From contig OY969934.1 in the NCBI GenBank assembly GCA_963704725.1, forward strand, positions 2,816,001 through 2,880,000: a stretch of DNA of 64,000 nucleotides. Reading direction: 5' to 3'. This DNA is from an uncultured Actinomycetes bacterium (lineage in GTDB: Bacteria > Actinomycetota > UBA4738 > HRBIN12). A program made the translations under genes and the position numbers. Below are positions 16,602 to 57,518 of this stretch, piece after piece (position 1 is the stretch's first letter; every line of letters begins with the position of its first letter). The notes under the pieces are model-generated. The model was not told the DNA's origin, did no database searches, and saw only the letters and a list, made by a program, of their open reading frames with translations.

Positions 16602-18235
16602 GCCTGAGCTTCCCTGCCCCGGGTGAGATCGGTCTCCCGATCGAGGATCCGCTCCCACACGGGGGTGGGGAGCGCCTCGATCACGACGAACATGACGACC
16701 CCGCCGATGGCCGCCCGGTAGCGCCGCCACACGTAGGGGTGGAGGGTGTCCACCTCCTGCGGGAAGCAGCGCCGGAACACCTCGTCGATCTCCCCCGCGG
16801 TCTCGTGCGTTCCGAACTCGAACTCGAGCTTCTCGATCCTGGGGTCGACGAACAGCTGCCCGAGGTTCAGGTGTGTCGCCTCGAGCAGCGCCGCGAGCGT
16901 GGGGTCGATCTGCCCCAGGTCCACGTACGAGAGGTTCCGTGACAGCCACACCGATCCCATGCGATACCCCGTGCAACGGGCCAAGACCTCACCGTCCTCC
17001 GACAACGGCGGGCTCAGCCACCGGACGGGCGGCTGGAGCTTCCACTGGGACACCACCTCGAGGTGCGGCGGGGCGCCGGTGATGGACTCGATCGTCTGCG
17101 CCAGGGTTCGGTCGGTCATCCGGAGCACGGCGGCGGGATCCAGGGGGAGCCCGGCGTCTCCCGCCTCGAACGTCCCCACGGTCCGGCCGACGGCGCGCGC
17201 GATCGGGCGGAGCTCGGACATGAGCTCGCGCATGGCCTCGATGTCGATCGCCACGCCGTCGGGGTCGTGGACGGCCTCGGTCCCCACCTCCAGGACGAGG
17301 CCGTCGGCTCCCGCGGCGACCGCGGCCTTGGCCATCGCCGGCACGGTGCCGACGTGAGGCGCCGTCTGCGACGGATCCGCGACGAGCGGGAGGTGGCTCA
17401 GCTGCTTGATGAGCGGGACGGCGTTGATCTCGAACCGCGGCTTGCGCAGCGCGTCGAACGTGCGGATCCCCGACTCGCACAGGATGACCTTCCCGTTCCC
17501 GTGCAGGAGCACGTACTCGGCGGCGAGAAGGAACTCCTCCACCGTCGCTCCCGGCCCGCGCCGCAGCATCACCGGATGCTGCGTCCGGCCCATGTCCCGC
17601 AGGAGGCTGAAGTCCTGCATGTTCCGGCTCCCCACCTGCAGCAGATCGGCGACCAGGACGGCCGCCGGGAGGTGGCTCGCGTCGGCGACCTCCACGCACA
17701 GCGCCAGCCCGTGCTCGTGCGCGATGTCTCGGAGCCGGGCCAGCGCGTCGGGGGTGAGCCCGGAGGCCGCGTCGCGAGGGGGGGTCAGGGCGATCTGCCC
17801 GGCGTGGAAGACGCGGCATCCCGCCTCGCGGAGCAGCGGCGCCAACAACCGGAACCTCGCGTCGCTCGCGGCGGCCCACCTCGAGCTCACGATGACGCCG
17901 AGCGGGGCCCGGCCCCCCAACCGGACGATCTCGGGCGGCGCGAGCCCGTCCCGTTGGAGCGCGATCTCGATGGCGACGTCCTCGTCGAAGAGCTCCCGGC
18001 TCGCCAGTCGGTAGGGAACGGAGACCTGCACGAGGCGGCGGACCGAGGGAAGGCGTTCGAACGGCTCGCTCTCCACGGGCCGCACGCCGTCGCCGAGCGG
18101 CACGGCGGCCCACCCGTCGCCCCGGGTCACCCGTGCGCCCGGGAGCAGGCCCCCAGCGACCGCGAGCACGTCGGCGAGGTCGGATTCCGCCGCCGAGGGG
18201 TCGAGCACGATGACGCAGGGGGCCGTGACCTGCAC
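16598..18235 (-). CDS. Fusion: regulatory ferredoxin/ACT-like domain + degenerate type I-beta DAHP synthase + chorismate pyruvate-lyase-like domain
   Basis: LQVGSRNMQDFSLL, LAAEYVLLHGN.KVILCE retained but GPCSVE and KPRTS lost; C-terminal TDRTLAQTIESITG...LEVVSQ...RRYRAAIGG.VMFVVIEALP resembles UbiC/Rv2949c-type lyases. Confidence 0.7.
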   Translation of the reverse strand: MQVTAPCVIVLDPSAAESDLADVLAVAGGLLPGARVTRGDGWAAVPLGDGVRPVESEPFERLPSVRRLVQVSVPYRLASRELFDEDVAIEIALQRDGLAPPEIVRLGGRAPLGVIVSSRWAAASDARFRLLAPLLREAGCRVFHAGQIALTPPRDAASGLTPDALARLRDIAHEHGLALCVEVADASHLPAAVLVADLLQVGSRNMQDFSLLRDMGRTQHPVMLRRGPGATVEEFLLAAEYVLLHGNGKVILCESGIRTFDALRKPRFEINAVPLIKQLSHLPLVADPSQTAPHVGTVPAMAKAAVAAGADGLVLEVGTEAVHDPDGVAIDIEAMRELMSELRPIARAVGRTVGTFEAGDAGLPLDPAAVLRMTDRTLAQTIESITGAPPHLEVVSQWKLQPPVRWLSPPLSEDGEVLARCTGYRMGSVWLSRNLSYVDLGQIDPTLAALLEATHLNLGQLFVDPRIEKLEFEFGTHETAGEIDEVFRRCFPQEVDTLHPYVWRRYRAAIGGVVMFVVIEALPTPVWERILDRETDLTRGREAQA

Positions 18236-19047
18236 TAGACCGACCTGCCCACCGCAAGCGCCATGCTGCGGACCCGTCCCATGAACCCGCCGAACGTCGA
18301 GGACTCGAGCGACTGGTCGCCGTCGGACAGCGCCGCCGCGGGGTCGGGATGGACCTCGACGAGGACGCCGTCCGCGCCGGCCGCGATCCCCGCCAGCGCC
18401 ACGGGGGTGACGAGGTCCCGCCGCCCCGTGCCGTGCGACGGATCGACCACCACGGGCAGATCGCTGCGGAGCTTGATCTCGGGGATCGCCGCGATGTCCA
18501 GGCTGTTGCGGGTGGCCGGTTCGAAGGTTCGGCTCCCTCGCTCGCAGATCACGACCTGGTCGTTGCCCCGGACCACGATGAACTCGGCGGCCGCCAGGAC
18601 CTCGTCGATCGTCGCGGTGACTCCCCGCTTCAGCAGCACGGGTCGCCCCGACGCCGCCGCGGCTTCCAGGAGCGCCCGGTTGTCCATGTTCCGCGCGCCG
18701 ATCTGCACCATGTCCGCGTACCGGGCCACGGCGGCGACCTCGTCCGCGGACATGGCCTCGGTGACGACCCCCATCTCGAGCTCGTCGGCCACCTCTCGCA
18801 TGATGGCCAAGCCGCGCTCACCAAGACCCTGGAAGCTGTAGGGAGAGGTCCGCGGCTTGAACGCCCCGCCCCGCAGGAGCACGGCCCCCGCTGCGGCTAC
18901 CGCGAGCGCGGCCTCCCGGAACTGCTCGGGGCCCTCCACCGAGCAGGGGCCGGCGACCACGCGGACCGGATGACCGGCTCCGAAGGTGATGCCCGCGACG
19001 GAAACGCCGACCCTCGACACGGGCGCGTCCATGAGATCCGCACTCAT
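18235..19047 (-). CDS. aroF: 3-deoxy-7-phosphoheptulonate (DAHP) synthase, type I-beta, catalytic barrel only
   Basis: [60 protein letters not shown]. Confidence 0.92.
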
Positions 19048-19098
19048 CGAATCGTTCGATCCCCTGGGAAGGTGTCCGCCCAGTGTGAGGCACCGCGC

Positions 19099-19136
19099 CG
19101 TAGCTCACATACGACGACGGTCGTAAACCTCCTACC
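19099..19136 (-). promoter_or_regulatory. Two GTA-N7-TAC operator-like sites upstream of aroF
   Basis: CGTAGCTCACATACG (19099-19113) and CGTAAACCTCCTACC (19122-19136). Confidence 0.5.
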
Positions 19137-21251: not shown

Positions 21252-21914
21252 GTGACCGATCGAGACACCCAGCCCCATCCCATCAGCCGCAGGCAGGTCC
21301 TGCGTGGCGCCGCGGTCGCTGGGGCCGTGGCGTGGGCGACGCCGGTGATCCAGTCGATCAATCCGACGCGTGCGTACGCGGGGACCCCGTCGCAGCAGTG
21401 CTACTCGGTGATCATCGACGCGAACGGGCAGTGCGTCCCCGTCCAGAACGCCGCGGCGTACAACTGCGTCACTCCGGAGCTCGGCGAGACGGACGGATGC
21501 GGCTTCGTGAGCGCGAGATCCGGCCCGGGTGGCGTCACGGTCGCCGTGGCCGAAGGGGTCCAGGTCGTCGACACGGGAACGAGCTCGGACGGGAACTGTC
21601 AGCCGGCGCTGTCGTCGGCGGACGCCCGGACGTGGGCGTTCTCCGGAGCGAGGGCCGACACCACGTCGCAGGTCGAGATGGTGGTCTGCGTCCCGATCGG
21701 CGGGGTGACCGGCCCCACGGGCGCGAGCGGTGCCACGGGAACCACGGGTGCCCCCGGCGCCCCGGGAGCGGACGGGGCCGGACCCACGGGCGCGAGCGGC
21801 GCGACGGGCTCCAGCGGCGCGACGGGCTCCAGCGGCGCGACGGGAGCCAGCGGCGCGACGGGCCCGAGCGGCGCGACGGGAGCCAGCGGCGCCAGCGGAA
21901 CGACCGGGAACTGA
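21252..21914 (+). CDS. Tat-signal protein with 6-Cys domain and C-terminal collagen-like G-X-T/S tail
   Basis: GTG after AAGGAG; SRRQVLRG...WATPVIQSI...AYA leader; [10 protein letters not shown]... triplets. Confidence 0.75.
21795..21893 (+). repeat. 18-bp tandem repeat (AGCGGCGCGACGGGnnnn, five copies plus a partial) encoding SGATGx
   Basis: Units start at 21795, 21813, 21831, 21849, 21867. Confidence 0.9.
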
Positions 21915-21951
21915 CGGGACCGACGCGGCCGGCGGCGCGCGCGTGCCGCCC

Positions 21952-22878
21952 TCACCTGCGGGATCGCGCCACCTCGCGTTCGGGCGAGTCCCGCGAGGCG
22001 CCTCGGACGACCTCCAAGACGGATCGAACGGCCTCGTCCAGGTCGTCGATCCGGATCCGGTAGCATCGTGCGCCGCCGATCACGCGGCCGAGCAACTCGA
22101 TCCCCGCGGCGCCGAACCGGTCCAGATAGAAGGCGTTGCGGGCCATCACCATGAGCGCCTCGGCGCGGGCGATCGGCTCGAGCTCACCACCCGCGCCGGC
22201 CTCGTACCTCGGCGCGATGACGAACCGCACCGGACAGGGCCGTCCGAGAGCCCTGGCCCGCAGGTCGCTGGGCCGCACGTGGAACTGACGGCCCGTGGTC
22301 CATCGCATCCGGCTCGACTTCTCTTTGAACACGGCCTCGACGGAGGGCTTCGCCAGCCACAGGGACCGGGGGAAGGGCTGGAGCAGGCCGGTCCTCGGGT
22401 CGATCAAGGCCGCCTCGTCCGTGAGGTAGGCGCATCCGGCGCGCGTGAGCCCGGCGACGAGCGTGCTCTTGCCCGAATCGGGCGGCGCGGGAAGGACGAT
22501 GCCCGAGCCGCGCCACGACGCCGCGGCCGCGTGCACGGCGAAGAAGCCGTGATCCGAGCCGATCGCCTTCGTGCTGATGTCCCACAGCGTGAACTCGAGG
22601 ATCCGCGAGGGCGTTCGGCCGCGGTGCAGCGACGAGCCGTTCAGGTACACGGCCCACGGCTTCTCCTGCCCCGGCTCCCGGCGAAGCTCGTAGACGGGGA
22701 CCTCGGGGCCCACGTCCACCTCGAAGGGCGCGAGGAAGCGCCGGAGGAAGGCACCGAGCCGGGGGGACGCCACGATTCGGAGCGGATAGGCGAGGACCCG
22801 GTAGCGACGTTCGATCGACATGGGTGGGGTGGCTGGTAGCGCGACGATACGCGAACCGCGCCCGGGGGCGCCGATCAT
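21952..22878 (-). CDS. HPr kinase-related P-loop kinase
   Basis: AVHAAAA, LPAPPDSGKSTL, GCAYLTDEAALID, PFPRSL; alternative start at 22821. Confidence 0.82.
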   Translation of the reverse strand: MIGAPGRGSRIVALPATPPMSIERRYRVLAYPLRIVASPRLGAFLRRFLAPFEVDVGPEVPVYELRREPGQEKPWAVYLNGSSLHRGRTPSRILEFTLWDISTKAIGSDHGFFAVHAAAASWRGSGIVLPAPPDSGKSTLVAGLTRAGCAYLTDEAALIDPRTGLLQPFPRSLWLAKPSVEAVFKEKSSRMRWTTGRQFHVRPSDLRARALGRPCPVRFVIAPRYEAGAGGELEPIARAEALMVMARNAFYLDRFGAAGIELLGRVIGGARCYRIRIDDLDEAVRSVLEVVRGASRDSPEREVARSRR

Positions 22879-22896
22879 CGGCGCGGCTTGGCAGTG

Positions 22897-23277
22897 TCAG
22901 GTGCAGTTGCAGGGCGTGCAGGGGCTCGCGCTGCACGAGCACGAGTTCAGGCCGGAGTCGAAGTCGTGATTCGCGTACCCCTGGCTGCGGCACAGGGCCT
23001 GGCAATCCGCGTCGTTGTTCGGGACGAGCGGAGGCGCCCCATTCGCTGCGCAGCTGCAGGCGAGGACGCCGGCCTTCGTGGGGCGCCAGCAGTAGCAGCA
23101 GTAGAACCTGGCCGAGCCCTGGACCGTGTGGGCGTAGGCCGGCTTCGCGATGCTCTGAACGGCGGGAGCCGCCCACAGGAGCGTGCCGCCCACGATCGCA
23201 CCGCGCCGAAGCAGGTCCCGGCGCGAGAGGCCGGGCTCCTTCCCCGGGTCGATCTTCTTCGGGGCGCGGTCCGTCAT
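22897..23277 (-). CDS. Small Tat-signal Cys-rich protein (12 Cys in a ~77-aa mature part); candidate modified precursor
   Basis: ATG after AAGGGGAG; SRRDLLRRG...WAAPAVQSI...AYA leader; CCxC, CxC, CxxxC, CxC, CxxCxC. Confidence 0.75.
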   Translation of the reverse strand: MTDRAPKKIDPGKEPGLSRRDLLRRGAIVGGTLLWAAPAVQSIAKPAYAHTVQGSARFYCCYCWRPTKAGVLACSCAANGAPPLVPNNDADCQALCRSQGYANHDFDSGLNSCSCSASPCTPCNCT

Positions 23278-23310
23278 CGGGGACTCCCCTTCGCCGCTCG
23301 TTCCTGGACC

Positions 23311-25622: not shown

Positions 25623-27431
25623 CGGTAGACGCAGACGTAGCTCGGCACGCCGTCGTGCAGCGCGATCTCTCCTCGCGGCTCGAACCCGACCCGTTTCACG
25701 ACCCGCCGCATGGTCAGGTTGTCCGCCGCCACGTAGCACTTGATCTCGTCCACCCCCAGCTCCTCGAGGGCGAGGAGGGCCTCGAGCGTCAGCTCGGTCC
25801 CCAGGCCCGGGGCGGTCTTCGGCCGGATGCCGATCAGCGTGTGCTCGGCGTCGGGCAGGCCCTCGGTCTGCTCCGGATACCGGAACAGCTCATACGCGCG
25901 GCGGAGGACGCCCGGGCGCAGAAGCCTGGGCGCGGCGCTGATCGCCGCGGGGACGCCGTACCGGAGCACGAACCGCCGCCGGAAGGCGCGCATCGAGACG
26001 GCACCCGACGTGTAGCCGATGACGTCCCCGCCGCGATCGGCCACGAACGTGGGGGTCGTGGGATCGTCGACCAGCGCTCGGAACAGGTGCCGCAGGAAAG
26101 GCTCCCCGAGCATGGGCAGGAACGCCTTCGTCATGACGCCGGCGTGAAGCGTTGCCATGGCCCGGACGTCCGCGCGCGTCGCCGGCCGGATGACCACATC
26201 GCGCAGCCCCTCCAACTCCACCGGCCGCACCCGCCGGCGCCGCTCGGGCAGGAGGGGGCGGTAGACGCCGACCACCCGCGACGCCACGGCGCGCTCGTCG
26301 AAGCGCTCCAGCGCGCGCTCCCGGGCGGCGCGCGAGAGACGGTCGCGCAGGCCGGCGTCACCCAGGAGACGATCGATCGCCTCCGTGAGCCCAGGCGCGT
26401 CGCGGGGCGGCACCAGCAGAGCCTCCACGCCGTCCCGCGCCACCTCGCGGCAGCCCCGGATGTCGGTCAGGACCATGGCCCGGCCCATGGCCGCCGCCTC
26501 GATGGCCGAGCGCGGCATCCCTTCCCGCCACGAGGGGAGCACGAACACGTCCATCAGCGCGAGCAGGTCACGGACATCGCTGCGGTAGCCGGCGAACACC
26601 ACGTCGGAAGCGACGGTCTCGCGCTCCGCGGCGGAGATCGCATCGTCCTTGTCGGGGTCGGACGGCCCGATGGCCAGGAACACCACGCCGGGGCGCCGGG
26701 CCCGGATGGCCCGAGCGGCGTGGAAGAACTCCCGATAGCCCTTCTCCTGCACCAGTCGCCCCACCATGCCCACCACGAGGGCATCGGGGTCGATGCCCGA
26801 GCTCGGCTCGAGCGGCGGCGAGCCGATCGGGATCGACGGCCGCGGCGTCGAACGTGGACAGGTCGGTGCCGTTGCCGAGGTGGTGGGACCTCCCCCGGCG
26901 GCCGATGCGCAGGCGCCGCGCCCACCGCAGATCCTCCTCGCTCTGGTAGAGCTCCGCGTGGCTGAGGCGCGACGCGAGCCACTCAAGGGTCATGACGGGC
27001 ACGCGCTTGCGCGCGGGGTCCTCGGGCGTCGCCCAGAACCCATGGACCGTGTTGACGACGACCGGCACGCCGGCCACCCGCCCCGCCACCCGCCCCATCA
27101 GCCCCGGCTTGGGGTTGTGGGTGTGGACCACGTCGAACCGCCCTCGTCGGAGGATGCCGACCAGTTCGACGAACGCCCGGGCATCGGCGGCGGGGCTCCA
27201 CGCCCTCGTGGCGTTGCGCCACGCGACGTGCTCGATGCCCTCGTGTCGCAGATCGTCGACCCACTCCCCCGGCGCGCTGATCGCCGTGACCTCGAACCCC
27301 TCGTCCCGAAGGCGGCGAAGCTGCTCGAGCAGCAGGAACCGCAGCGTGAGATCCACGGTCGTCACGTGCGCCACGCGGTAGGGCCGCCGCGCGACCTCGG
27401 AGGTGGCCGGTGAACGACCCGTCCGCGTCAC
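25583..27431 (-). pseudogene. GT4 glycosyltransferase-GNAT fusion split by a +1 frameshift near 26797
   Basis: N-half (RVAHVTT, HTHNPKPG, GNGTD) and C-half (VGRLVQEKG, PSWREGMPRSAIEA, then GNAT IRPAT...GDVIGY) lie in different frames, joined at CTC GGG CAT GAC-like GGG run. Confidence 0.75.
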
Positions 27432-28222
27432 GCCGGCGCCCATGGACCCCTGCGGAGCGCCCGATACGCCAGCCGTTCCCCGTCCAGCCGTCCGCGCGCC
27501 TTCGCCCGGAAGAAGAACCCACCGTCGCTGCGCATGATCGGGGTCCGCCCCAGACGGTGGGGGTCGATGCGCCCCGCCCGGTTGGTCTTCCACGCTTCCA
27601 CGGCGGCGGTGGCGAACCGCCGGCGCGCCGTGCGCTCGGCGGCGGGGGACGCTTTGCCCCACGGGAAGGCGAAGTGTGAGCAGCGGGTGCCCAGACGGTC
27701 CTCCACGAGCTCGGCGGACCGGCGCATCTCCTCCTCGCTCTGTTGCTCGCCGGCGCGGGACAGGTCGACGTGTCCATGGGTGTGCGAGCCGACGGTCACG
27801 AGCCCCGTCGAGATGGCCTCCTCGAGCATGGGCCACGTCAGCGCGCCGCCGGGCCCCACCCCCGTGCGAGGGTCACCGGCCTCGACGAACGCCGTCGCCA
27901 GGTACAGGAGCGCCGGCAGGCGGTGCCGGACCAAGCTGGGCAGCACCGCATCGTGGAAGTCGCGGAACCCGTCGTCGATCGTGATCACGACGCCCCCCCG
28001 CGGATCCGACAGGGCGTCCTCCAGCGTCCGCACGCTGCCCTCGGCGGCGAGTGACGCCAGATGCTCGTCGAACAGAGCGCCGGGCACGTCGATCTCCCGA
28101 TCCCCCGCACCCACGCGGTGGTAGCACAGGATCGTGACGTCGCCGGGACGTCGCCGCGTGGCCACGCCGAGCGGCAACGCCGCGACCTTCACCCCCGTTC
28201 GGACCAGGCCCTCGACCGTCAT
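27428..28222 (-). CDS. Polysaccharide deacetylase family protein
   Basis: ILCYHRV, ITIDDGF.D, GSHTHGH, FAFPWG. Confidence 0.88.
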   Translation of the reverse strand: MTVEGLVRTGVKVAALPLGVATRRRPGDVTILCYHRVGAGDREIDVPGALFDEHLASLAAEGSVRTLEDALSDPRGGVVITIDDGFRDFHDAVLPSLVRHRLPALLYLATAFVEAGDPRTGVGPGGALTWPMLEEAISTGLVTVGSHTHGHVDLSRAGEQQSEEEMRRSAELVEDRLGTRCSHFAFPWGKASPAAERTARRRFATAAVEAWKTNRAGRIDPHRLGRTPIMRSDGGFFFRAKARGRLDGERLAYRALRRGPWAPA

Positions 28223-29151
28223 GCCGTCTCGCTCGACGCCGGAGCGGGTGCCGGATCCCCTGCACCGCGTTCGGCGGCCCAGGCCACCACGGCCTCGACC
28301 ACCGCATCCTGGATCGGCGGGCTGAGGAACCCGTGGATCCTGCCGGGGATGGTCCGCACCTCCACACCATCCGGGGCCGCTCGCAGCGCATCCGCCAGCG
28401 GGCCGGCGGTCGCCTCGCGGTACTCCTGGAGGGAGGAGTCGTCGGTCCCGAAGATCTGGACGATCGGGACGCCGCGCTCGAGCAGCGCGCGCATCGGCCG
28501 CTCGTAGCTGGGACCCACCAGCGCCGACCCCGAGGATCGATCCTCGCTCCTGCGGAGCTTCGCGCGCGCGTACCTCGCGTAGCGCTCTCGGGATCGCCGG
28601 TCGAGCAGGCCCTTGAGCCGCCGCAGTCGGAGCGCCTCGACCGCGTACCTGCCGAGGTTCCACGTCGCCGCGGCGTTCGCGGCCTTGCGCCCGCCACGCT
28701 CGTGATCGCGCAGCGACGTCGCGAGCAGCACCACGGCGTCCACGTCCGAGATCTCGGCCGCCGCCGCCAGCGCGCTCCGGCCTCCGAAGCAGGACCCCAC
28801 GAGGATCACGCGCTCCACACCGAGCTCGTGGAACCTGGCCACGGCGGCGCGGACGTCGGCGTCGAACGGCCGGTCCAGCCGGAACCCTTCGACGAAGCCG
28901 GTGCTGTCGCCCGTGCCGTGGTAGTCGCACCGCAGCACCGCGTACCCCAGCCGAACCAGCTGGCGCGCCATGCGGACCGAGAGGCGATTGCGGTTGACCG
29001 TGAACGGCGTGCCCGCTCCGGGAAGGATGACGATGCCGGTCCGCACCGACCCGCTCTGCGGCAGCGTCACGACCCCGAAGAGCCTCGCGTCGGTCGTCTC
29101 GAAGAAGACCGGCAGCTCCGTGTATCCGGTCGTCACCATCGTGTCGCTCAC
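28219..29151 (-). CDS. Alpha/beta hydrolase-fold protein, Cys-elbow type (B2)
   Basis: NRNRLSV, DYHGTGDS, GSCFGG, GRIHGF; GTG after GGAGG. Confidence 0.8.
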   Translation of the reverse strand: MSDTMVTTGYTELPVFFETTDARLFGVVTLPQSGSVRTGIVILPGAGTPFTVNRNRLSVRMARQLVRLGYAVLRCDYHGTGDSTGFVEGFRLDRPFDADVRAAVARFHELGVERVILVGSCFGGRSALAAAAEISDVDAVVLLATSLRDHERGGRKAANAAATWNLGRYAVEALRLRRLKGLLDRRSRERYARYARAKLRRSEDRSSGSALVGPSYERPMRALLERGVPIVQIFGTDDSSLQEYREATAGPLADALRAAPDGVEVRTIPGRIHGFLSPPIQDAVVEAVVAWAAERGAGDPAPAPASSETA

Positions 29152-30059
29152 ATCGTTCCTCCGCCGGCGCCCGCACCGATCCACGCCACCGTTCGGCCGA
29201 TCAGGGCGCCCGTCAGCGACCGCGTGGTCTCATCGACGTATCGCTCCTCGATGAGCCACCACGTCTCCTCCCCCCGGACACCCTCGGCGTCGACCCGGAT
29301 CCCGGCGGCGCGCCATCGCTCCACGAGCCGGTCCATGTCGGGACGCACCGAGCCGGTTGGACCCACCTGGACCACGAGCACGCGCCGAGGCGCGGACCCG
29401 AGCTCGGACTCGAGCGAGCGGCCGGCCGAGGAACGGTACAGGGGCGCGTCCAGCCGGTGCGCGACGACGTCCACGGACTCCCCCCTGCGGAGCTGCTCCT
29501 CGAGCTCCCTCCCCGACGCCGGACCTTCGACGCCCCGACGGATCTCCCGAACGAGCCGGCTCCGGAACGCGTCCTTGAAGAAGCCCGCCGAGTCGAGCAG
29601 GGGCTCCCACAGCGCGACCCCGGCCCCTGGAACCGCGTTCGCCGCCGATGCCGCGATCAGTGCGCCCCAACGGCATCCGACGATCGTGAGCGGCCCAGTG
29701 GGGGCCACGGCTCGGAGGTGCTCGATGCTCACGAGCGCGTCTTCCCGCATCGAGTCGAAGGTGAGATCGGCCGCGTCCCCGTCGCTGTTGCCCGAACCTC
29801 GATAGTGGAACCGCAGGGCGGCGAACCCCTGCCTCGCGAGGGCACGGGCGAGCAGGACCTCGCGCCGGTAGTTCTTCGCGAACTCTCCGAGCAGCGGTGA
29901 GCAGATCGCCACCGCGGCCCTGGGAGCCGATGCCGGCAGGTGGAGGTACGTGAAGATGCGGGCACCGATGTCGCCCCGGAACTCGGCGCGCTCGGTCGTG
30001 CCATCAGCGGCCACGGCGGTCGCCACCGCCGGTCCCGCCCGATCCACCTCGATCGCCAT
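29148..30059 (-). CDS. Alpha/beta hydrolase-fold protein, Arg-elbow (non-catalytic) type (A2)
   Basis: CSPLLGE..NYRREVL, FHYRGSGNSDGD, GCRWGA. Confidence 0.8.
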   Translation of the reverse strand: MAIEVDRAGPAVATAVAADGTTERAEFRGDIGARIFTYLHLPASAPRAAVAICSPLLGEFAKNYRREVLLARALARQGFAALRFHYRGSGNSDGDAADLTFDSMREDALVSIEHLRAVAPTGPLTIVGCRWGALIAASAANAVPGAGVALWEPLLDSAGFFKDAFRSRLVREIRRGVEGPASGRELEEQLRRGESVDVVAHRLDAPLYRSSAGRSLESELGSAPRRVLVVQVGPTGSVRPDMDRLVERWRAAGIRVDAEGVRGEETWWLIEERYVDETTRSLTGALIGRTVAWIGAGAGGGTM

Positions 30060-30088
30060 CGTCGCTCCTCGTCCGGTCGTGCCGTCCG

Positions 30089-31024
30089 TCACCCGGCCGT
30101 GCGCCGCTCGGCCGCCCAGCCGACGATCTCCTCGGCGACCGAGTCCTGGGCCGCCACCGTCGTGAACCCGTGGAGCTTGCCCGGCAGGACCGAGACCCGG
30201 ACGATCCCCCGCCCCTCGTCCAGGACGTCGGCGAGCCGGCCCCGCGCCGCCGGGAGGTACTCGTCCGTGTAGAAGCCGTCCTCGGCCCCGTAGATGAACC
30301 AGACGGGCACGCCGCGCTCGACGAGCGCTCGCAGCGGGCGTTCGAAGCTCGGCGCTACCTCCTCCGTGGAGGTGGGGCGGTCCCGCACCAGCCGGCGAAG
30401 GAGCGGCAGCTTGGCGGCCGTCACGCGCAGCTTGCCCCGCAGGTACTTCGCGTACGTGTGGCGCACACGCCCGTGTCGCAGCCCGCGCAGGGTGCTCGGA
30501 CGCAGCGCCACCCGCACGTACCGGGCGAAGCTCTTCTTGCGCGCGTAGTTCAGGCTCTTGTTCTCGCCGAGCGCGTAATCGCGAAGGGCCATGGCCACCG
30601 GGATCACGGCGTCGACGCCGTCGAGCTCGGCGGCGGCGGCGACCGCGGTCCGGGCGCCGAAGCACGATCCGGCAAGGATCACGCGCTCCACGCCGGCCCG
30701 CCGCAGGCACTCCACGGCACCCCGAACGTCGTCGATGAACGGGCGGTCGAGGCGGAACTCGTCGACCGAGCCCGTGCTGTCCCCGACCCCGTGGTAGTCG
30801 AGCCGGAACCCGGCGTAGCCGAGCGCCGCGAGCTCGCGGCAGATCCGGACCGACAGCCGGTTGCGGTTGATCGTGAGTGGCGTCCCGACGCCCGTGAGGA
30901 TGATGAGGCCCGTGCGCGCGACGCCCTCGGCGGGCAGGGTGAGGATCCCGAACAGGGTCTCGCCGCCGGCGTCGAAGTAGACGGGCGTCTCCACGTACGT
31001 GGTCGTCACGGCGAGCTCGCTCAT
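30089..31024 (-). CDS. Alpha/beta hydrolase-fold protein, Cys-elbow type (B1)
   Basis: NRNRLSV, DYHGVGDS, GSCFGA, GKLHGF. Confidence 0.8.
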   Translation of the reverse strand: MSELAVTTTYVETPVYFDAGGETLFGILTLPAEGVARTGLIILTGVGTPLTINRNRLSVRICRELAALGYAGFRLDYHGVGDSTGSVDEFRLDRPFIDDVRGAVECLRRAGVERVILAGSCFGARTAVAAAAELDGVDAVIPVAMALRDYALGENKSLNYARKKSFARYVRVALRPSTLRGLRHGRVRHTYAKYLRGKLRVTAAKLPLLRRLVRDRPTSTEEVAPSFERPLRALVERGVPVWFIYGAEDGFYTDEYLPAARGRLADVLDEGRGIVRVSVLPGKLHGFTTVAAQDSVAEEIVGWAAERRTAG

Positions 31025-31929
31025 GCGACCTCCATCGGCGAGCGCTGCTCGACCCAGCGCGTGGTGAGCGAGATCAGCTCCTTCGTCAGCGGCCGCTGGG
31101 CCTCGTCCCTCCAGCGCTCGTCGACGAGCCACCAGCTCTCCTCGCCTCGCACCGCCGGCGTCTCCACGTCGAAGCCGTCCGCCCGCCATCGCTCGGCCTG
31201 GCGGGCGAGGTCGTGGCGCACGGAACCGGTCGGCCCGATCTGCACGGCCAGGATCGGCCGTGGCGCCGGGCCGAGCTCTCCCGCGATCGACCGCCCCACC
31301 GAGGAGCCATACAGCTGCGGCATCAGCCGGTGCCCGGGCACCTCCACGGGCGTTCCGTCGCGCAGCCGCTGCTCGAGCTCCTGGCTCGTCGGCGGATGCT
31401 CGACGCCGTCACGCATCGCCTTCACCAGGAGGTTCCGGAAGGCCGCCTTGAAGAACGCCGAGGCTTCCAGGAGCGGCTCGAGGAGCACCACCCCGGCGCC
31501 CGGATGCGCCGCAGCCGCCGAGGCGGCGATGAGCGCCCCCCACCGGGTTCCGAGGAAGAACCGCGGCCCCGGCGGGACCTCCTCGTCGATGCGCTCGGCG
31601 GCGGCCAGGGCGTCCTCGCGCATCGACGCGAACGTCAGGTCCTCGTCGTCTCCGTCGCTGTTTCCGGTGAATCGGTAGTGGAAGCGCAGGGCGGCGTACC
31701 CGCGATGCGCGAGCCGCCGCGCGATGAGCACCTCACGCCGGTAGTTGTGCATGAACTCGCCGAGCAGCGGCGAGCAGACGACCACGGCGCCGCGCGGCCG
31801 GGACGCCGGAAGGTGCACGAACGTGAGCACCCGGCCCCCCGCCGGGCCACGCAGCTCCGCGCGCTCCACGGAACCGTCTGCCGCGACCCGTGTCGCCTCT
31901 GCGGCGACGACGGGATCGGACTGGACCAT
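31021..31929 (-). CDS. Alpha/beta hydrolase-fold protein, Arg-elbow (non-catalytic) type (A1)
   Basis: CSPLLGE..NYRREVL, FHYRFTGNSDGD, GTRWGA; ATG after AAGGAG. Confidence 0.8.
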   Translation of the reverse strand: MVQSDPVVAAEATRVAADGSVERAELRGPAGGRVLTFVHLPASRPRGAVVVCSPLLGEFMHNYRREVLIARRLAHRGYAALRFHYRFTGNSDGDDEDLTFASMREDALAAAERIDEEVPPGPRFFLGTRWGALIAASAAAAHPGAGVVLLEPLLEASAFFKAAFRNLLVKAMRDGVEHPPTSQELEQRLRDGTPVEVPGHRLMPQLYGSSVGRSIAGELGPAPRPILAVQIGPTGSVRHDLARQAERWRADGFDVETPAVRGEESWWLVDERWRDEAQRPLTKELISLTTRWVEQRSPMEVA

Positions 31930-32923: not shown

Positions 32924-33978
32924 GCCGGCCCTCGCACCGGCTCGCCCGGAACGAACGACGGGATCCTCCCGGGGAGGCCGCGGGTGATCCCCAGGCCGGC
33001 CCCGAGCACCGCCGCGCCGGCCAGGACCACGAAGGGGAAGTGCAGGACGTAGTCGACGGTGGCCTGGACGGCCAGGACCGACACCCCGGCCGCCGACAGG
33101 ACCGCCACGCGGCCGGGCGCCCCTTCGGCCAGGGCGGCGAACCCCCACACGAAGACGCCGACCAGGAGGGCGTACCCGACGAGCCCCGTCTCGGCCCCCG
33201 CCTGCAGGAACTCGTTGTGCGCCCAGCGCAGGTCCGGATCCGACAGCGCGATCGGGCTCGTCCGAGCGAATCGGCCGGGTCCCACGCCGAACATGGGACG
33301 TCGCGCCGTGATCGACAGGGCGTCGTTCCACAGCGCCACCCGCTCCTGCGAGAGCGTCGCATCGACGAGCCGGTCGAGGGGGCCGGCGCCCGACCGGACC
33401 CCGATCGCGCCGAGCACGATCGTGGCCACGAGGGCCACGAGGAACACGCCTGCGCAGGCCGCAACGGCGGCGCGAGCGCCGCGAAGGCGCTCCACGCCGA
33501 GCGCGACGGCAACGAGGAGGGGCAGGCCGATCCCCGCCGTCCAGGACGCCGAGACGAGCACGAGCGGTGTGAAGGCGATCGCCGCCGCCGCGCCGACGAC
33601 CCGGAGTGGGCCGCGACCGACGACGGTCAGGAGGAGGGCGGCCACGAACGCCTGCGCGAAGAACGCGGCCGAGGCGTTCGCATAGCCGAACGGCCCCTCG
33701 AGCGGTCCGGCGCGCAGCGTCGCACCGGCGTCCGACCCGAAGACCGCGATCGCGGCCCCGACCAGGCCGAGCAGGACGAGCGTGGGCCGGCGAGCGGCGG
33801 CCACCCACGCCACGACGAGCGTCGTCGCGGCTCCACCGATGAGCGCCACGGCAGGTGCGGGGGAACCGCCCGCGCTCGTGCCCGAGACCAGCCACCATGC
33901 GCCGGCCGCGCCGAGCAGGGCCACGCCGCCCACCGCCGAGCCGGCCGACCACTCCGATCCGCGCTGGAGGGCGCTCAT
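32920..33978 (-). CDS. O-antigen ligase/oligosaccharyltransferase-like membrane protein (Wzy_C)
   Basis: Multiple TM helices; GPFGYANA, ERVALW, FGVGPG.F, AHNEFLQ..AETGLVG. Confidence 0.82.
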   Translation of the reverse strand: MSALQRGSEWSAGSAVGGVALLGAAGAWWLVSGTSAGGSPAPAVALIGGAATTLVVAWVAAARRPTLVLLGLVGAAIAVFGSDAGATLRAGPLEGPFGYANASAAFFAQAFVAALLLTVVGRGPLRVVGAAAAIAFTPLVLVSASWTAGIGLPLLVAVALGVERLRGARAAVAACAGVFLVALVATIVLGAIGVRSGAGPLDRLVDATLSQERVALWNDALSITARRPMFGVGPGRFARTSPIALSDPDLRWAHNEFLQAGAETGLVGYALLVGVFVWGFAALAEGAPGRVAVLSAAGVSVLAVQATVDYVLHFPFVVLAGAAVLGAGLGITRGLPGRIPSFVPGEPVRGPA

Positions 33979-35348
33979 GTGCGAGCCCCCGCCAACACCG
34001 ACGGCTCGGGGACGGCTCCCACGGCGGATGGCTCGTCGACGCGCCGCCGGGCCGTGACGCACAGCAGGACGAAGAACATCGGATAGAGCAGCGTCCGCTG
34101 GCGGGCGATGATCCCGAAGTTCGCCACGGCCGACAGCGCGACGATGGATCCGGCGACGTAGACGACGGCCACCGCGACGTACGGGGTCCTGCGGACCGAG
34201 CGCAGCGCCGCCAGGATCGACCTGAAGCGCACGACGACGACGAGGAGCAGGAGCGACCCCTCGATCGAGGTGACCGCCGCCTCGACCGTGTTCGCTTCGA
34301 ACAGGAAGGGCCGGAAGAGCACCGTGACGACCGAGAGCGCGAGGCCCGACGGCGAGGTGATCGATGGCGCGTTGAACTGTGAACCGCCCGCGCTCGTCAC
34401 CCGCTGCTGCTCGGCGACGACCGTGTCGAAGCTCGAGCCGAGGCCGGAGCGCGCCAGGTAGCCGCGCATCGTGACGCCGAGCACGACGAGGACGCCGGCG
34501 AACAGGACGACGGTGGCCAGCTTGGCGATCGGGCCGAGCTGTCGCAAGCTGTGGCTCGGCTTGCGCAGGAGACCCCCGACGACGAACCCGACCCCCATGA
34601 GCGCGGCGATGGGCGCCCGAACGAGCGCGGCCAATCCGATCCCGATCGCCGCGATCAGGAGCCCCGGCACGATCTTGCGCGCCAGCATCGTCGCCGCGCC
34701 GAACGCCGCGATCCCCAGCCCGAACATCATCCACGACTCCTTGCCGATGCTCGAGGGCCAGAACAGGATCGAGGGCATGAAGAACAACCAGCGGGCGTAG
34801 CTGCGCCGGTTCCCCTCGGGCAGCGCCAGCACGAACGCCCGGTAGAAGTAGAAGGTCCCCCAGAACGCCAGCCACGCGTAGATCAGGAACCCCGCGATCA
34901 CGCTGGGCCGGATGATCGTGTAGACGATCCCGGTGAACAGCCGGATGAAGTTCGTGTCGTACAGGTTCCCGAGCTGCGGATCGAAGTTCCCGTGCAGGAA
35001 CCGCTCGGCGATGTCCGTTCCGAAGTTGTCGAACGAACGGGCGTCTGCCTTCTCGACGACGTGGAACGCGTGGAACCAGCGGAAGAGCGAGAACGCCATC
35101 TTCACGGACAGCGCGGCGACCAGGAACCAGAAGACCCGTCGGTCGCCCTCCCGCCGGGCCTGACGGGCGAGCGCCGGAAGCGTGGCCACGAACAGCACGG
35201 GGCCGACGAGCATCGCCCCCCACGAGTCCCAGGACGTCCGGTCCATGAGATAGAAGAGCAGCGTCAGGTAGCCCGCCACGAACGCGAGCCCCACCACGAC
35301 GATCGTCCGGTTGGGCGAACCCTCGCGGATGCGCTCGGCGCCGACCAT
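33975..35348 (-). CDS. Polytopic membrane protein, putative glycan polymerase (GT-C-like)
   Basis: About 10 hydrophobic segments; PSILFWPSSIGKE, LFRPFLFEA, ANFGIIARQR. Confidence 0.6.
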   Translation of the reverse strand: MVGAERIREGSPNRTIVVVGLAFVAGYLTLLFYLMDRTSWDSWGAMLVGPVLFVATLPALARQARREGDRRVFWFLVAALSVKMAFSLFRWFHAFHVVEKADARSFDNFGTDIAERFLHGNFDPQLGNLYDTNFIRLFTGIVYTIIRPSVIAGFLIYAWLAFWGTFYFYRAFVLALPEGNRRSYARWLFFMPSILFWPSSIGKESWMMFGLGIAAFGAATMLARKIVPGLLIAAIGIGLAALVRAPIAALMGVGFVVGGLLRKPSHSLRQLGPIAKLATVVLFAGVLVVLGVTMRGYLARSGLGSSFDTVVAEQQRVTSAGGSQFNAPSITSPSGLALSVVTVLFRPFLFEANTVEAAVTSIEGSLLLLVVVVRFRSILAALRSVRRTPYVAVAVVYVAGSIVALSAVANFGIIARQRTLLYPMFFVLLCVTARRRVDEPSAVGAVPEPSVLAGART

Positions 35349-36380
35349 TCAGAACACCTCCACGTCGCCGGTGGCGAGCGACCACGACGACAGGAGCCGG
35401 GGATCGGGGGCGAGGCCCTCGCGCAGAGGGTTCACCACGAAGGTCATGCCCTTCGGGGCGCGGATCGTGGTCGGTCCTCGGTGGGCCCGTCCGGCCGAGG
35501 ACCCCGGCGGGAACGCGGCCGCCACGTACGCGACGTCCGCGGACCGGCGGACGGCGGCGAGCAGCCGCCGTGCGCCCTGCACGTCGCCGGGACGGACGAT
35601 GACGTCCCCCACCGAGATCCCCCACAGTGAGCCCTCGGCACGGAGCCGGAACAGCGCCAGCCCGGTGACCTCGCCGCCTCGTTCCTCGAGCACGGCGTGA
35701 TAGTCGAGGAGCGGCGCCCGGCCGTAGCGCCACCGCAGGTACTCGACCGACCTCGGCGTGGCGTAGCCCGGGCCCGGCGGCTGGGCGCGATCGAGCAGCG
35801 CCGAGATCCGCATCTCGTCGCCCAGGACCTCGTCGGCGCGGGGGGCGGACACGAGGGGACGCTCGGAGGCGTTCGACCGGCCGCGGCGGAGCTTGCCGAG
35901 CGCGAACGCCATCGGGCGACGGACGCGGACCGACACGGGGATCCGGCCGGTGATCTGCCAGCCCATCTTGAGATAGCCGGGCAGGCTGTTCTCGTTCGGC
36001 GTGTTGAAGATCAGGTCGACCTCGCCCTTCAGGGAGTCCAGCGCGGCCCGTGTGAGCGTGGAGAAGACCCCCCGGCCTCGCTCCTGCGGGTGGGTCACGG
36101 TGTCGACGGGACGCGCCGCCTCGATCGTCCGGTCCCCTATCCGGAACCGCCACCGCATGAGAGCCCGGAAGCCGATGATCCGCCCGCCGGTCTCGGCCAC
36201 GATCATGAACGAGCGCCCGAAGGGGTTCTCGAGATGCTTCCACCGGAAGTACTCGGGCGTGCGCTGGCCTCCCGGGCCGCCGCCGAGCGAGCCGCGGAGG
36301 AGGTCGAGGACCTCGGGCTCCTCGGCGTCCCGGTACGGCCGGACCAGCAGGTCGGTGCGCATCGACGTGTCCCCGCTCAC
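35349..36380 (-). CDS. GNAT-family N-acyltransferase
   Basis: VRPY, YFRWKH.ENPFG, DTVTHP..RGRGVFS, FNTPN.NS..GY.KMGW. Confidence 0.85.
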   Translation of the reverse strand: MSGDTSMRTDLLVRPYRDAEEPEVLDLLRGSLGGGPGGQRTPEYFRWKHLENPFGRSFMIVAETGGRIIGFRALMRWRFRIGDRTIEAARPVDTVTHPQERGRGVFSTLTRAALDSLKGEVDLIFNTPNENSLPGYLKMGWQITGRIPVSVRVRRPMAFALGKLRRGRSNASERPLVSAPRADEVLGDEMRISALLDRAQPPGPGYATPRSVEYLRWRYGRAPLLDYHAVLEERGGEVTGLALFRLRAEGSLWGISVGDVIVRPGDVQGARRLLAAVRRSADVAYVAAAFPPGSSAGRAHRGPTTIRAPKGMTFVVNPLREGLAPDPRLLSSWSLATGDVEVF

Positions 36381-39833: not shown

Positions 39834-40754
39834 TCAGACCCCTCCTCGGACCCGGTGCACGGTGGGATGGAGTCCGCTGGTGATCGTGCGGAACCGGTCG
39901 AGCGTCGTGGTCGAGTTCACCCGGAGTCGGGAGATCGCGAACGGGTCGCTCGGGTGGAGGGAGCTGAGCCGGTGGTCGAACAGGAACGCGGCCTCGTAGC
40001 CGAGCTCGCCCAGGATCGTCGCCGCCCGAACGTCGCGGTCTCCGTCCGGGTAGGCGAACGCCCGGGGTTCGTGACCCAGCGCCTCGGTGAGCATCCGATG
40101 CGACGTCTCGAGCTCGCTCCGGCAGACCCGGTCCGAGCAACGGCCGAGGCACGGGTGCGACCACGTGTGGTTGCCGACGGCGATCCCGGACGACTCGAGC
40201 GCCAGGAGCTCCGCGCTCGTGAGCTGGCGCATCGGCGGCGCGGCCGTCACGGCGGTCCGGCGGAGCTCCTCGACGGCGGCGAGGCGGCGCTCGTCGGGCA
40301 TCCGCTTGAGCGCCCGGACGACGTCGGGCGGCGCCACCGGGGGCAGCCCGGTCACGGTGCCCCCGTGGCTCGCCAGCTCGACCACCTCGCTCCACCAGAA
40401 CGGGCGGTCCGATCCGACGAGGCCGGCGACGACGAACACGACGGCCGGAAGCCCGCGCTCCACGAGCATCGGCATCGCGACGTCCACGACGCTTCGGTGG
40501 CCGTCGTCGAACGTGATGAGGACGGCCCGCCGAGGCAGCGCCGGCCCCGAGCGCATCGAGTCGAGCACCTGCTCGAGCGAGACCGGGTAGGACGTCCTGC
40601 GCAGGTGGTCGAGGTGGCGGCCGAAGCGCTCGGCGTCGTCGATCCCGTGGTAGGCGAGAACGGCCAGCCGCCGCGCCGCCCGCCAGTCGAAGACCGGCTG
40701 CGCCGGGCTCCGCGAGAGCACGGCGTCCAGCCACACCTCGGCGCGAGGGTTCAC
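39834..40754 (-). CDS. Polysaccharide deacetylase family protein
   Basis: LAYHG, ITFDDG, GNHTWSHP, FAYPDG. Confidence 0.88.
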   Translation of the reverse strand: MNPRAEVWLDAVLSRSPAQPVFDWRAARRLAVLAYHGIDDAERFGRHLDHLRRTSYPVSLEQVLDSMRSGPALPRRAVLITFDDGHRSVVDVAMPMLVERGLPAVVFVVAGLVGSDRPFWWSEVVELASHGGTVTGLPPVAPPDVVRALKRMPDERRLAAVEELRRTAVTAAPPMRQLTSAELLALESSGIAVGNHTWSHPCLGRCSDRVCRSELETSHRMLTEALGHEPRAFAYPDGDRDVRAATILGELGYEAAFLFDHRLSSLHPSDPFAISRLRVNSTTTLDRFRTITSGLHPTVHRVRGGV

Positions 40755-41623
40755 CCGACCGCCCTCAGACCCGCCGGCGTGTCGCCCGGCCGCCACAGCG
40801 GTTGGCCGAGCCAGGCCTCCAGGCGCGCCACGTCGGCCCACATCGGGGTCAGCACGTCGTCGGGGATGGGGGCTCGCGAGGCCTCGAGCCGGCGGGCGTA
40901 GGTGTCGCCCTCCCGCGCGAACACCCGCTTGGCCACGCGCCGGAGCGGCTTCGGCACCCGGGCGATGCGGCGGGAGTTCACCAGACCCCGGCTCTTGGCC
41001 CAGGCCATGGCGCGCGTCCACTGGGCCTTCTCGGCGTTCACGTTGTGCGACCCTTCGGGCAGCGGGCGATCGGACAGCGACAGGAAGCGCAGGACCTCCG
41101 ACCACGCCGGCGCCGGCTGCCTCACGAGGTCCTCGAACCGGACGACGAGGATCCGCTCCCGGGGGAACCGGTCGACGTAGGGCTGCAGGCAGGCGGCGTA
41201 GCTGCTGTGGCCGAGGTACGGGTTGCCCGGCTCGCGCAGCGCCTCGACGAGCGACCGGGACTCGCGCCGGCGCTGGACCTCGTGGCGGTAGTGGGATCGG
41301 ATCCGCTCGACGGGGTGCCGGATGATGTAGATGAGGCGCGCGGACGGGATGAGCTCCGCCATCCGCTCGGCGGCGTCCGGCGCGTATACGGGGCTCGTGT
41401 AGTTCTGGGAGGCCTCGCCGAGGATCTGCTCGGGCGTCGCCTCCGCGAACTTGCTCTCGTACCACGCCCGGCCGTTCGGCCACAGATCGCTGAAGAAGCG
41501 CGTCTCCTTGGGGTGGGCCATGCACGTCTCCGGCTGCTCGTCGAGCCACCGGAACAGGGACGTGGTGGCGGACTTCATCGCCCCGATGATCACGAAGTCC
41601 GGCATGCGGGCCGGCTCAGCCAT
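40751..41623 (-). CDS. Sulfotransferase
   Basis: PDFVIIGAMKSATTSL PAPS loop, KETRFF, GEAS..Y, IRHPVERIRSHY. Confidence 0.88.
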   Translation of the reverse strand: MAEPARMPDFVIIGAMKSATTSLFRWLDEQPETCMAHPKETRFFSDLWPNGRAWYESKFAEATPEQILGEASQNYTSPVYAPDAAERMAELIPSARLIYIIRHPVERIRSHYRHEVQRRRESRSLVEALREPGNPYLGHSSYAACLQPYVDRFPRERILVVRFEDLVRQPAPAWSEVLRFLSLSDRPLPEGSHNVNAEKAQWTRAMAWAKSRGLVNSRRIARVPKPLRRVAKRVFAREGDTYARRLEASRAPIPDDVLTPMWADVARLEAWLGQPLWRPGDTPAGLRAVG

Positions 41624-42860: not shown

Positions 42861-43633
42861 CAGATCACGTCCGCGAACCGCGACTTGGTTGCGCCGAAGT
42901 ACCACACGCCGATCACGAGCGCCACGACCGCGCCGACGATCGAGGGCCACAGGTCGCCGAGGTCGGGCGCGTGGCCGCCGATCAGCACCCGGCGGAAGGA
43001 CATGATGAGCCCGGTCATCGGGTTGGCCCTGTAGAACGGCAGGAGGCTGTGCGGGACCTTGCTCAACGGGTACATCACCGGGGTCAGGTAGAGCCACATC
43101 TGCGTGATCAGCGGCACCGCGAGGCGGATGTCGCGGGCGAACACGTTCAGCGCGCTCCCGAACAGGATCAGCCCCGTGGCGAGCACGATCTCGATCAGGA
43201 GCAGGGGGAAGGCCCACAGCGACGTGAGTGGGAGACCGATGCCGCTCGCGATCACGACGATGATGAAGAGGACCACCGTGATGGCGAGGTCGATGAGCCC
43301 CGTGCCGATCATCGACAGCGGGATCGACGCCCGTGGGAAGGCCAGGCGCGTCACCATCGTCTGCTGCATCGCCACGCTCGGCACACCGGCCGTGAGCACG
43401 CTCGAGAAGAACGACCAGGGGGCGAGGCCGGAGAGCGCGAACAGGTAGTACGGCGTATCGCCCGACTCGACCCCGAGCGCCTTGTGGAACACCACCGTCG
43501 CCACCAACAGGCTGATGAGCGGTGGGATCACCGCCCATCCGAGACCGGCCAGCGACTGCCGGTACCTGAGCTGGTACTGCCGTCGGACGAAGGACAGCAC
43601 CAGGGTGCGTCCCCTCCACGTCTCAGCGATCAT
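42860..43633 (-). CDS. wzm: Polysaccharide ABC exporter permease
   Basis: RYRQSLAG.GWAVI.P, FARDI, YLTPVMYP, NPMT. Confidence 0.88.
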   Translation of the reverse strand: MIAETWRGRTLVLSFVRRQYQLRYRQSLAGLGWAVIPPLISLLVATVVFHKALGVESGDTPYYLFALSGLAPWSFFSSVLTAGVPSVAMQQTMVTRLAFPRASIPLSMIGTGLIDLAITVVLFIIVVIASGIGLPLTSLWAFPLLLIEIVLATGLILFGSALNVFARDIRLAVPLITQMWLYLTPVMYPLSKVPHSLLPFYRANPMTGLIMSFRRVLIGGHAPDLGDLWPSIVGAVVALVIGVWYFGATKSRFADVI

Positions 43634-50219: not shown

Positions 50220-50232
50220 GCGAACGCCCGCC

Positions 50233-57517: not shown

Positions 57518-57518
57518 G

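Follow-up and report, generated by a model that had tools for sequence, protein, structure and literature searches.

What do two consecutive pairs of alpha/beta-hydrolase-fold proteins do in a surface-polysaccharide locus, when one member of each pair has Arg where the nucleophile is expected and the other has Cys? The question is raised by the genes A1, B1, A2 and B2 of a 64,000-nucleotide stretch of DNA from an uncultured Actinomycetes bacterium (assembly GCA_963704725.1, contig OY969934.1, positions 2,816,001 to 2,880,000), the whole of which is referred to as the window. In this study, we have examined the anatomy and conservation of these genes, their partnership and their neighbourhoods, in the window and in related loci and genomes (given L and G numbers, respectively). 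Based on our results, the A-B pair is an uncharacterised, widespread two-part enzyme, present here in a new arrangement. We give about an even chance to its being a heterodimeric Cys transacylase that unloads carrier-bound acyl groups onto a glycan.

The four genes follow one another on the minus strand in the order A1-B1-A2-B2 (28219-31929), as the initial annotation had read them, and its further statement that each pair is joined by a 4-bp overlap proved correct in every particular when the coordinates and junctions were checked. Both pairs are translationally coupled through these overlaps: an ATGA at 31024-31021 contains the stop of A1 and the start of B1, and a GTGA at 29151-29148 contains the stop of A2 and the start of B2. 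The second overlap requires that B2 start at GTG, which is backed by the alignment with B1; the next ATG (29139) would leave an 8-nt spacer instead. Between B1 and A2 there is a 29-nt spacer containing GAGGAG. A1 and A2 are 60% identical and B1 and B2 50%, with 21-24% identity between A and B. The window has a G+C content of 70-75% and almost all of its genes lie on the minus strand. Because third-position GC is high in all four frames (0.86-0.91) and because sequence searches find A and B homologues in their hundreds, we take the four genes to be real and not chance open reading frames (ORFs). The translations also agree with what the initial annotation had said of the active sites, namely that the nucleophile elbow carries Arg in A (GTRWG or GCRWG) and Cys in B (GSCFG), with an HGF motif in B, and that A is without a catalytic His. 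The last point holds at the triad column, which is occupied by W266/W267 in the A family. The nearly invariant His84 of A lies elsewhere, within an RFHYR motif that is homologous to the DYHG of B.

These odd active sites are conserved. Cys121 is invariant and His285 nearly invariant in an alignment of 49 B homologues, and an alignment of 36 A homologues has an invariant Arg129 and Trp266/Trp267 where the His loop would be. We then used a wider alignment of 77 genome loci and the window, with members from Actinomycetota, Eisenbacteria, Armatimonadota, Verrucomicrobia, Luteibacter and a Polyangiaceae metagenome-assembled genome. The A-type elbow has R in 76 of its rows and K in 5 (the column is missing in 9 fragment rows), and the B-type elbow has Cys in 88 of the 90 rows in which the column is filled, the remaining 2 being A-like halves of fused ORFs; where both columns are aligned (60 B rows), 59 rows have the His. 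In a library of 1.84 billion proteins, the A-family profile retrieved 604 clusters at 50% identity (E<=1e-30), and the elbow Arg is kept in 146 of the best 150 A-family representatives. We also noted a divergent subtype of the pair (L031, L032, L034, L036, L040, L045, L054, L055 and L009:4282-6329) in which the B elbow reads TCFG and several members have L or N at the triad-His column and T or S at the acid column; this subtype is frequently found near sulfotransferase homologues.

Several lines of evidence support the proposal, already made in the initial annotation, that A and B form a heterodimer, and we extend it to an obligate one, so that each pair would be a single enzyme. In addition to the coupling described above, A lies directly upstream on the same strand for 111 of the 124 B genes found in 156 loci; the 13 exceptions comprise 11 genes within 600 nt of the end of a contig and the second and third B genes of a single locus (L106). 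In 8 loci the two proteins are fused into a single chain, with an A-like N-terminal half and a B-like C-terminal half, and fusions account for 6 of the 150 A-family representatives (5 A-B and 1 B-A), with strong scores for both halves. The source genome itself has such a fusion outside the window, a 699-codon ORF with the elbows GVRWG and GTCYG (G000:C1, about 666.4-671.8 kb; L089:8397-13769), in which the Cys-elbow half is without the triad His (PGEIDSF); genes for an AMP-binding enzyme and a small carrier protein come after it. When trees of A and B were built with care from the same loci (14 rows each), the same starred groups appeared in both, and the pairs therefore duplicate as units. 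Finally, the modelled complex of A1 and B1 scored 0.92 in three runs, compared with 0.62 for the best control, with contacts that agree by at least 80% between runs and a partner predicted local distance difference test (pLDDT) of at least 79. Of 157 solved complexes, 116 pass the mark for such models, as do 2 of 215 mismatched pairs, but these counts are only a rough guide here, since our model was built from own alignments. The predicted interface is pseudo-symmetric, and each chain contributes its N-terminal strands and its invariant loops to it (A 56-67 and 88-95; B 46-59, 79-90 and 286-293, the last just past His285). One locus (L106:7328-11021) has one A followed by three B genes, with the elbows GTRWG in A and GGCFG, GGCFG and GTCFG in B, suggesting that several B subunits can share a single A.

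The neighbourhoods of the pair link it to genes that load carrier proteins. A metagenome scan with an alignment gave 79 loci, and a scan with the single protein B1 gave none; the closest relatives, on contigs of 38 and 72 kb, were not among these 79. To count neighbours we kept the 49 B genes that have at least 5 kb on both sides and looked within 5 kb, where 40 of the 49 have a homologue of a carrier protein, an adenylase, a prolyl-carrier-type dehydrogenase or a benzoate-coenzyme A (CoA) ligase (by type, carrier 36, adenylase 25, dehydrogenase 20 and ligase 4). The commonest order, in Eisenbacteria, Armatimonadota and many Actinomycetota, is A-B-dehydrogenase-adenylase-carrier, with a dehydrogenase of the acyl-CoA dehydrogenase (ACAD) type and a peptidyl carrier protein (PCP). 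Other loci read carrier-A-B-adenylase without the dehydrogenase (L005, L008, L011, L015 and L157), and in others again the pair stands beside two 3-deoxy-D-arabino-heptulosonate 7-phosphate (DAHP) synthase-like genes and a benzoate-CoA-ligase homologue (L003, L009, L020, L051 and L103). The conserved core is thus made of A, B, an adenylating enzyme and a carrier, and the remainder varies.

Known families place the pair only at a distance. In Pfam, A and B match generic alpha/beta-hydrolase families and nothing else, and the nearest NCBIfam models are TIGR03101 (hydrolase 2, exosortase A system-associated) for A, with 78.8 bits for A1 and 93.3 for A2 (cut-off 202.75), and TIGR03100 (hydrolase 1 of the same system) for B, with 65.9 bits for B1 and 70.6 for B2 (cut-off 168.45). 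By these scores A and B are distant relatives of the two families and not members. The initial annotation had stated that Arg/Cys-elbow pairs accompany an acyl carrier protein (ACP) in exosortase-A loci, and this was borne out by the canonical systems. Among 300 genomes sampled from one class, 21 have a TIGR03100 match above the cut-off (2 of the 21 flagged as unpublished), and we examined seven of these loci, excluding one unpublished locus. All seven read carrier protein, hydrolase 2, hydrolase 1; the hydrolase 1 elbow is G-L-C-D-[AG] in 7/7 and the hydrolase 2 elbow G-L-R-x-G in 6/7. The window shares with these systems the order of hydrolase 2 and hydrolase 1 and the Arg and Cys elbows; a carrier protein and an adenylase are part of its locus, 17-20 kb from the pairs, and stand next to the pair in relatives. 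Unlike them, its pairs are tandem-duplicated and distant from their carrier, its donor genes are a prolyl-carrier-dehydrogenase cassette instead of an exosortase-type ligase, and no match to an exosortase (PF09721, EpsH/XrtA) was found in the source genome, which is 95% complete. The Cys elbow region of B also resembles the dienelactone hydrolases, a family of Cys-His-Asp alpha/beta hydrolases (PF01738; B1 27.7 and B2 37.0 bits, above the Pfam cut-off of 21), in a match that is partial and not full-length, covering profile positions 79-126 (B1) or 32-125 (B2) of 217; unlike that family, the pair has no link to lactone metabolism and has an obligate partner that is absent from PF01738. AF2 models of the monomers are confident (pLDDT 89.9 for A1 and 82.7 for B1), and profile searches against solved structures returned generic esterases and lipases, with no close solved relative of A or B.

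Which acyl groups could be carried in the window? The initial annotation had proposed two donor routes, pyrrolyl-PCP and aryl-CoA, and we found both a prolyl-carrier cassette and a gene of the benzoate-CoA-ligase family (Table 1). The adenylase, carrier and dehydrogenase of the cassette are each nearest to proline-pathway enzymes, which points to the prolyl-carrier to pyrrolyl route of the PltF/PltL/PltE or PigI/G/A type. The dehydrogenase scores 412.9 bits with the PigA model and 409.8 with RedW, compared with 288 for the next family, while missing the equivalog cut-offs (500 and 650); among solved structures it is closest to the prolyl-ACP dehydrogenase 4irn (374 bits). The nearest stand-alone solved relative of the adenylase is the L-proline carrier ligase 6o6e (365 bits), and the 81-aa carrier is nearest to pyrrole-pathway carriers. 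The product of the cassette could be pyrrolyl or only dehydroprolyl, which sequence does not tell apart. For the aryl route, we searched the 64-kb window for a second carrier with a profile of 59 carrier sequences, and this gave the one carrier already described. The C-terminal 193 aa of the 561-aa DAHP-synthase-like protein have no Pfam match even at E 0.5, and 4-hydroxybenzoate is thus only a guess at the aryl acid. The trio of two DAHP-synthase-like genes and the ligase is conserved in L003, L009, L020, L051, L090 and L103, and in L009 it is preceded by a tryptophan-halogenase-like FAD enzyme. Homologues of the BD-FAE hydrolase that adjoins the window's adenylase recur beside pair modules in L082, L086 (between two pairs), L013, L141/L142 and L166.

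The candidate acceptor lies in the glycan pathway that surrounds the pairs, which sit between a GT2/Wzy-like block and a polysaccharide deacetylase gene. The locus encodes six or more glycosyltransferases, two deacetylases, two sulfotransferases, an aminotransferase, UDP-sugar dehydrogenases, a Wzm/Wzt-type ABC exporter and chain-length/kinase proteins, and the synteny of this context is common to the window, L002 and L003. From the two sulfotransferases, the polymer is probably sulfated. Inspection of the N-termini of A and B gave no evident signal peptide; transfer would therefore be cytoplasmic, which in our interpretation fits a pathway with an ABC exporter. The deacetylase gene is coupled to the last B in the window, L001, L002 and L099, and this coupling suggests N-acylation of a freed amino sugar, in analogy to known cases elsewhere in which acylation follows deacetylation. 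We had considered the deacetylase as a marker of the acceptor and dropped it, as it directly follows B for only 5 of the 124 B genes besides the window. Among the other genes of the locus, the larger sulfotransferase has homologues in 29 of 156 related loci, and two proteins accompany the pairs in several phyla: a GNAT protein, with homologues in 12 related loci, and a protein without family match, with homologues in 8. A very large multidomain protein is encoded at the edge of the locus, and an HprK-related kinase A gene and a PqqD-like gene were also recorded.

Table 1. Position of the A-B pairs and of other features of the locus within the window.
Feature	Position	Strand	Remarks
A1, alpha/beta-hydrolase fold	31021-31929	minus	302 aa; elbow GTRWG with Arg129; without triad His; TIGR03101-like, below cut-off
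B1, alpha/beta-hydrolase fold	30089-31024	minus	311 aa; elbow GSCFG with Cys121; Asp249; His285 in LHGF; TIGR03100-like, below cut-off
A2, paralogue of A1	29148-30059	minus	303 aa; elbow GCRWG
B2, paralogue of B1	28219-29151	minus	310 aa from GTG start; elbow GSCFG; His in IHGF
Polysaccharide deacetylase (PF01522)	27428-28222	minus	start overlaps B2 stop as ATGA
Carrier protein (PP-binding)	51396-51641	minus	81 aa; only carrier found in the window
Acyl-CoA dehydrogenase, prolyl-carrier-protein dehydrogenase-like	50233-51555	minus	440-codon ORF; true start probably near 51390; listed ORF overlaps carrier gene
Stand-alone amino-acid adenylation enzyme	48615-50270	minus	TIGR01733, 393.8 bits
BD-FAE family alpha/beta (Ser) hydrolase	47764-48600	minus	adjoins adenylase; candidate editing esterase or rival transferase
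Benzoate-CoA ligase family protein	15042-16658	minus	TIGR02262, 408.5 bits (cut-off 375.25); second candidate donor route
Two DAHP-synthase-like genes	16598-19101	minus	561 aa and 288 aa; conserved trio with benzoate-CoA ligase
Sulfotransferase	40751-41671	minus	
Sulfotransferase, larger	46349-47764	minus	
Wzm/Wzt-type ABC exporter	41616-43633	minus	
GNAT protein (Acetyltransf_9)	35349-36380	minus	343 aa
Protein without family match	33975-35348	minus	457 aa
Multidomain protein at locus edge	196-5901	minus	1901 aa; malectin, rhamnogalacturonan-lyase beta-sheet and fibronectin-III domains
HprK-related kinase A gene	21599-23310	minus	among small ORFs
PqqD-like gene	57233-57577	minus	

The mechanism that we infer from these sequences, from the acyl-Cys chemistry and transfer in place of hydrolysis to the glycan acceptor and the role of A, would run as follows. 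B would be the catalytic subunit, and its Cys, together with His and Asp, would attack an acyl thioester on a phosphopantetheine carrier, or perhaps on CoA. At the window locus, the acyl group would be the pyrrolyl or dehydroprolyl unit delivered by the adenylase-PCP-dehydrogenase cassette, and the acyl-S-Cys intermediate would then pass it, inside the cell, to a nucleophilic group on the surface polysaccharide or its precursor. A, in which Arg replaces the nucleophile and Trp-Trp stands at the site of the His loop, would lack catalytic activity, and with its own pocket it would probably bind a constant anionic component, either a negatively charged acceptor or the carrier together with its phosphopantetheine. 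That this component is a constant one is suggested because A is more conserved than B and retains a pocket of its own. We are more tentative about a fuller version, in which the pair is a new two-subunit transacylase whose Cys subunit bears the acyl group and whose Arg subunit binds either the carrier or an anionic acceptor, with the tandem paralogues adding pyrrole-2-carboxyl and aroyl groups to a sulfated surface polysaccharide and B setting the donor or site specificity; this we hold to be possible and somewhat doubtful as a whole.

The main rival of the Cys transacylase would be a thioesterase with a release or editing function, in which B only cleaves the carrier thioester and A is a scaffold. 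It has in its favour that thioesterases have the alpha/beta-hydrolase fold, that the pair stands constantly beside carrier proteins, and that a profile search gave a weak match to the myristoyl-ACP thioesterase 1tht (E 9e-4); we nevertheless regard it as unlikely, since free pyrrole-2-carboxylate would have no obvious use in a glycan locus and editing needs no two or three paralogous pairs per locus. An editing role, moreover, already fits the conserved BD-FAE Ser hydrolase beside the adenylase, and both the Cys nucleophile and the strongly conserved second pocket in A point to a second substrate. Far less probable still, in our judgement, is a shuttle like CmaE/SyrC that would move the acyl group between two carrier proteins. 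The second carrier that should act as acceptor was not found, with one carrier in the 64-kb window and three in the whole source genome (PF00550 at E<=0.001), and there is only one carrier in the minimal conserved module, even if two carriers are found near pairs in L120/L122, L123, L131 and L107 and stand-alone acyltransferase-like shuttles do exist, as described in PMC8748450.

Some of our observations weigh against the Cys transacylase itself. The control that scored 0.62 kept B and swapped A for an unrelated protein, meaning that B is "sticky" in the model, which weakens the argument from the complex. The divergent subtype, including the fused copy of the source genome, is without the His and fits poorly with one fixed mechanism. 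The five-gene module is also found outside polysaccharide loci (L005 and L037), so the acceptor need not be a glycan, and no acceptor-specific gene is conserved with the pair. Within the window, the pairs are 17-20 kb from the only carrier detected, which with its adenylase belongs to the same locus and in relatives adjoins the pair; nothing indicates that B takes CoA thioesters, and the BD-FAE Ser hydrolase beside the adenylase could itself perform the final transfer. Foldseek with the A1 and B1 models returned only generic esterases and lipases (template modelling score about 0.5-0.65), and literature searches, which extended to journals outside subscription, yielded no functional work on any member of an Arg/Cys pair. 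A TIGR03100 gene is listed in a Burkholderia polysaccharide cluster in PMC3584217, where a quality-control role is guessed without data.

If the pair is a Cys transacylase, why are there two of them? Pairs and candidate donor routes both number two in the window, and the initial annotation had matched one to the other, with one pair serving pyrrolyl-S-PCP, the other serving aryl-CoA, and the number of pairs tracking the number of routes. From that reading we retain the Arg/Cys pair with its carrier link and the conserved Cys and His of B, and we set aside as a rule the match between two pairs and two routes, which the comparison across genomes did not support. Some loci do conform to it: single pairs adjoin a single proline (Pro) cassette in about 30 loci, the pairs beside the DAHP-DAHP-benzoate-CoA-ligase trio (L009, L020 and L051) form one clade with a support of 100, and G004 has two pairs with two routes and G003 three pairs with three possible donors. 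However, G002, the closest window-syntenic relative that has both routes on one contig, combines the Pro cassette and the aryl route with one pair within 30 kb, and its only other pair is 38 kb further on, with a ligase and a carrier of its own. L167 reads A-B-A-B-PCP-ACAD-Adom, that is, two pairs for one cassette, and L106 reads A-B-B-B, both with the expected elbows; L002, although syntenic with the window, has three pairs, and its incomplete genome has a carrier-adenylase-BD-FAE set and a separate dehydrogenase, with no ligase homologue found there. The window in turn has a single carrier protein in its 64 kb.

The trees also speak against donor-specific pairs. The window pairs group with those of L001 and L002 in a single starred clade, apart from the Pro-adjacent and the aryl-adjacent clades, and this clade is sister to the L003 and L002-middle pairs. 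By this placement, the two pairs of the window are a lineage-specific local expansion and not the recruitment of donor-specific lineages. We attempted to assign a donor to each window pair from the B trees (a quick one of 62 rows and a careful one of 14) and rejected the assignment; the members of the clade adjoin no donor. As a general rule, one pair per donor is thus improbable in our view. Most likely, the two pairs differ in the substrate that B accepts or in its placement, without being strictly one pair per donor, and the paralogues may equally differ in the acceptor site. The A-B-B-B locus, along with a B1/B2 identity (50%) below that of A1/A2 (60%), suggests that specificity resides in B as the variable subunit, with A staying constant.

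How does the proposed transacylase compare with known enzymes that handle similar groups? CouN7 is a single Ser-nucleophile protein that acts on a small-molecule deoxysugar, and CmaE and SyrC use an active-site Cys. As described in PMC8748450, CouN7/CloN7 of aminocoumarin biosynthesis are acyltransferases that take the pyrrole acid unit off its carrier and attach it to the product, and CmaE/SyrC are stand-alone aminoacyl shuttles that take the group off one carrier thioester and onto another carrier. Compared by these descriptions, our system is like CouN7/CloN7 in outline, with a carrier-bound pyrrole-2-carboxyl group, an adenylase/PCP/dehydrogenase logic and transfer to a free substrate. The distinction is that here we have a Cys nucleophile, an obligatory and apparently dead partner, and a polysaccharide context. 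The differences from CmaE/SyrC, again on the level of description, are that those enzymes deliver to a second carrier, whereas the window has one, and that they are not known to have an Arg-elbow partner. Among the PDB sequence hits of A and B there was no obvious solved structure of CouN7, CmaE or SyrC.

In conclusion, our results emphasize an Arg/Cys pair that recurs where free-standing carriers are charged with a small acyl or aminoacyl group beside surface-polymer genes. The window is an unusually readable instance of it, having donor chemistry that can be named (the prolyl-carrier dehydrogenase cassette and the benzoate-CoA-ligase route), an acceptor pathway around the pairs, and tandem paralogues that represent a natural experiment in specificity. 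To our knowledge, the decoration of such a glycan with pyrrole-2-carboxyl or aroyl groups has not been described, although no search was aimed at this point. Solving the function of the pair would serve to annotate two long-standing "hypothetical equivalog" families, and it could reveal acylated polysaccharides of a new type.

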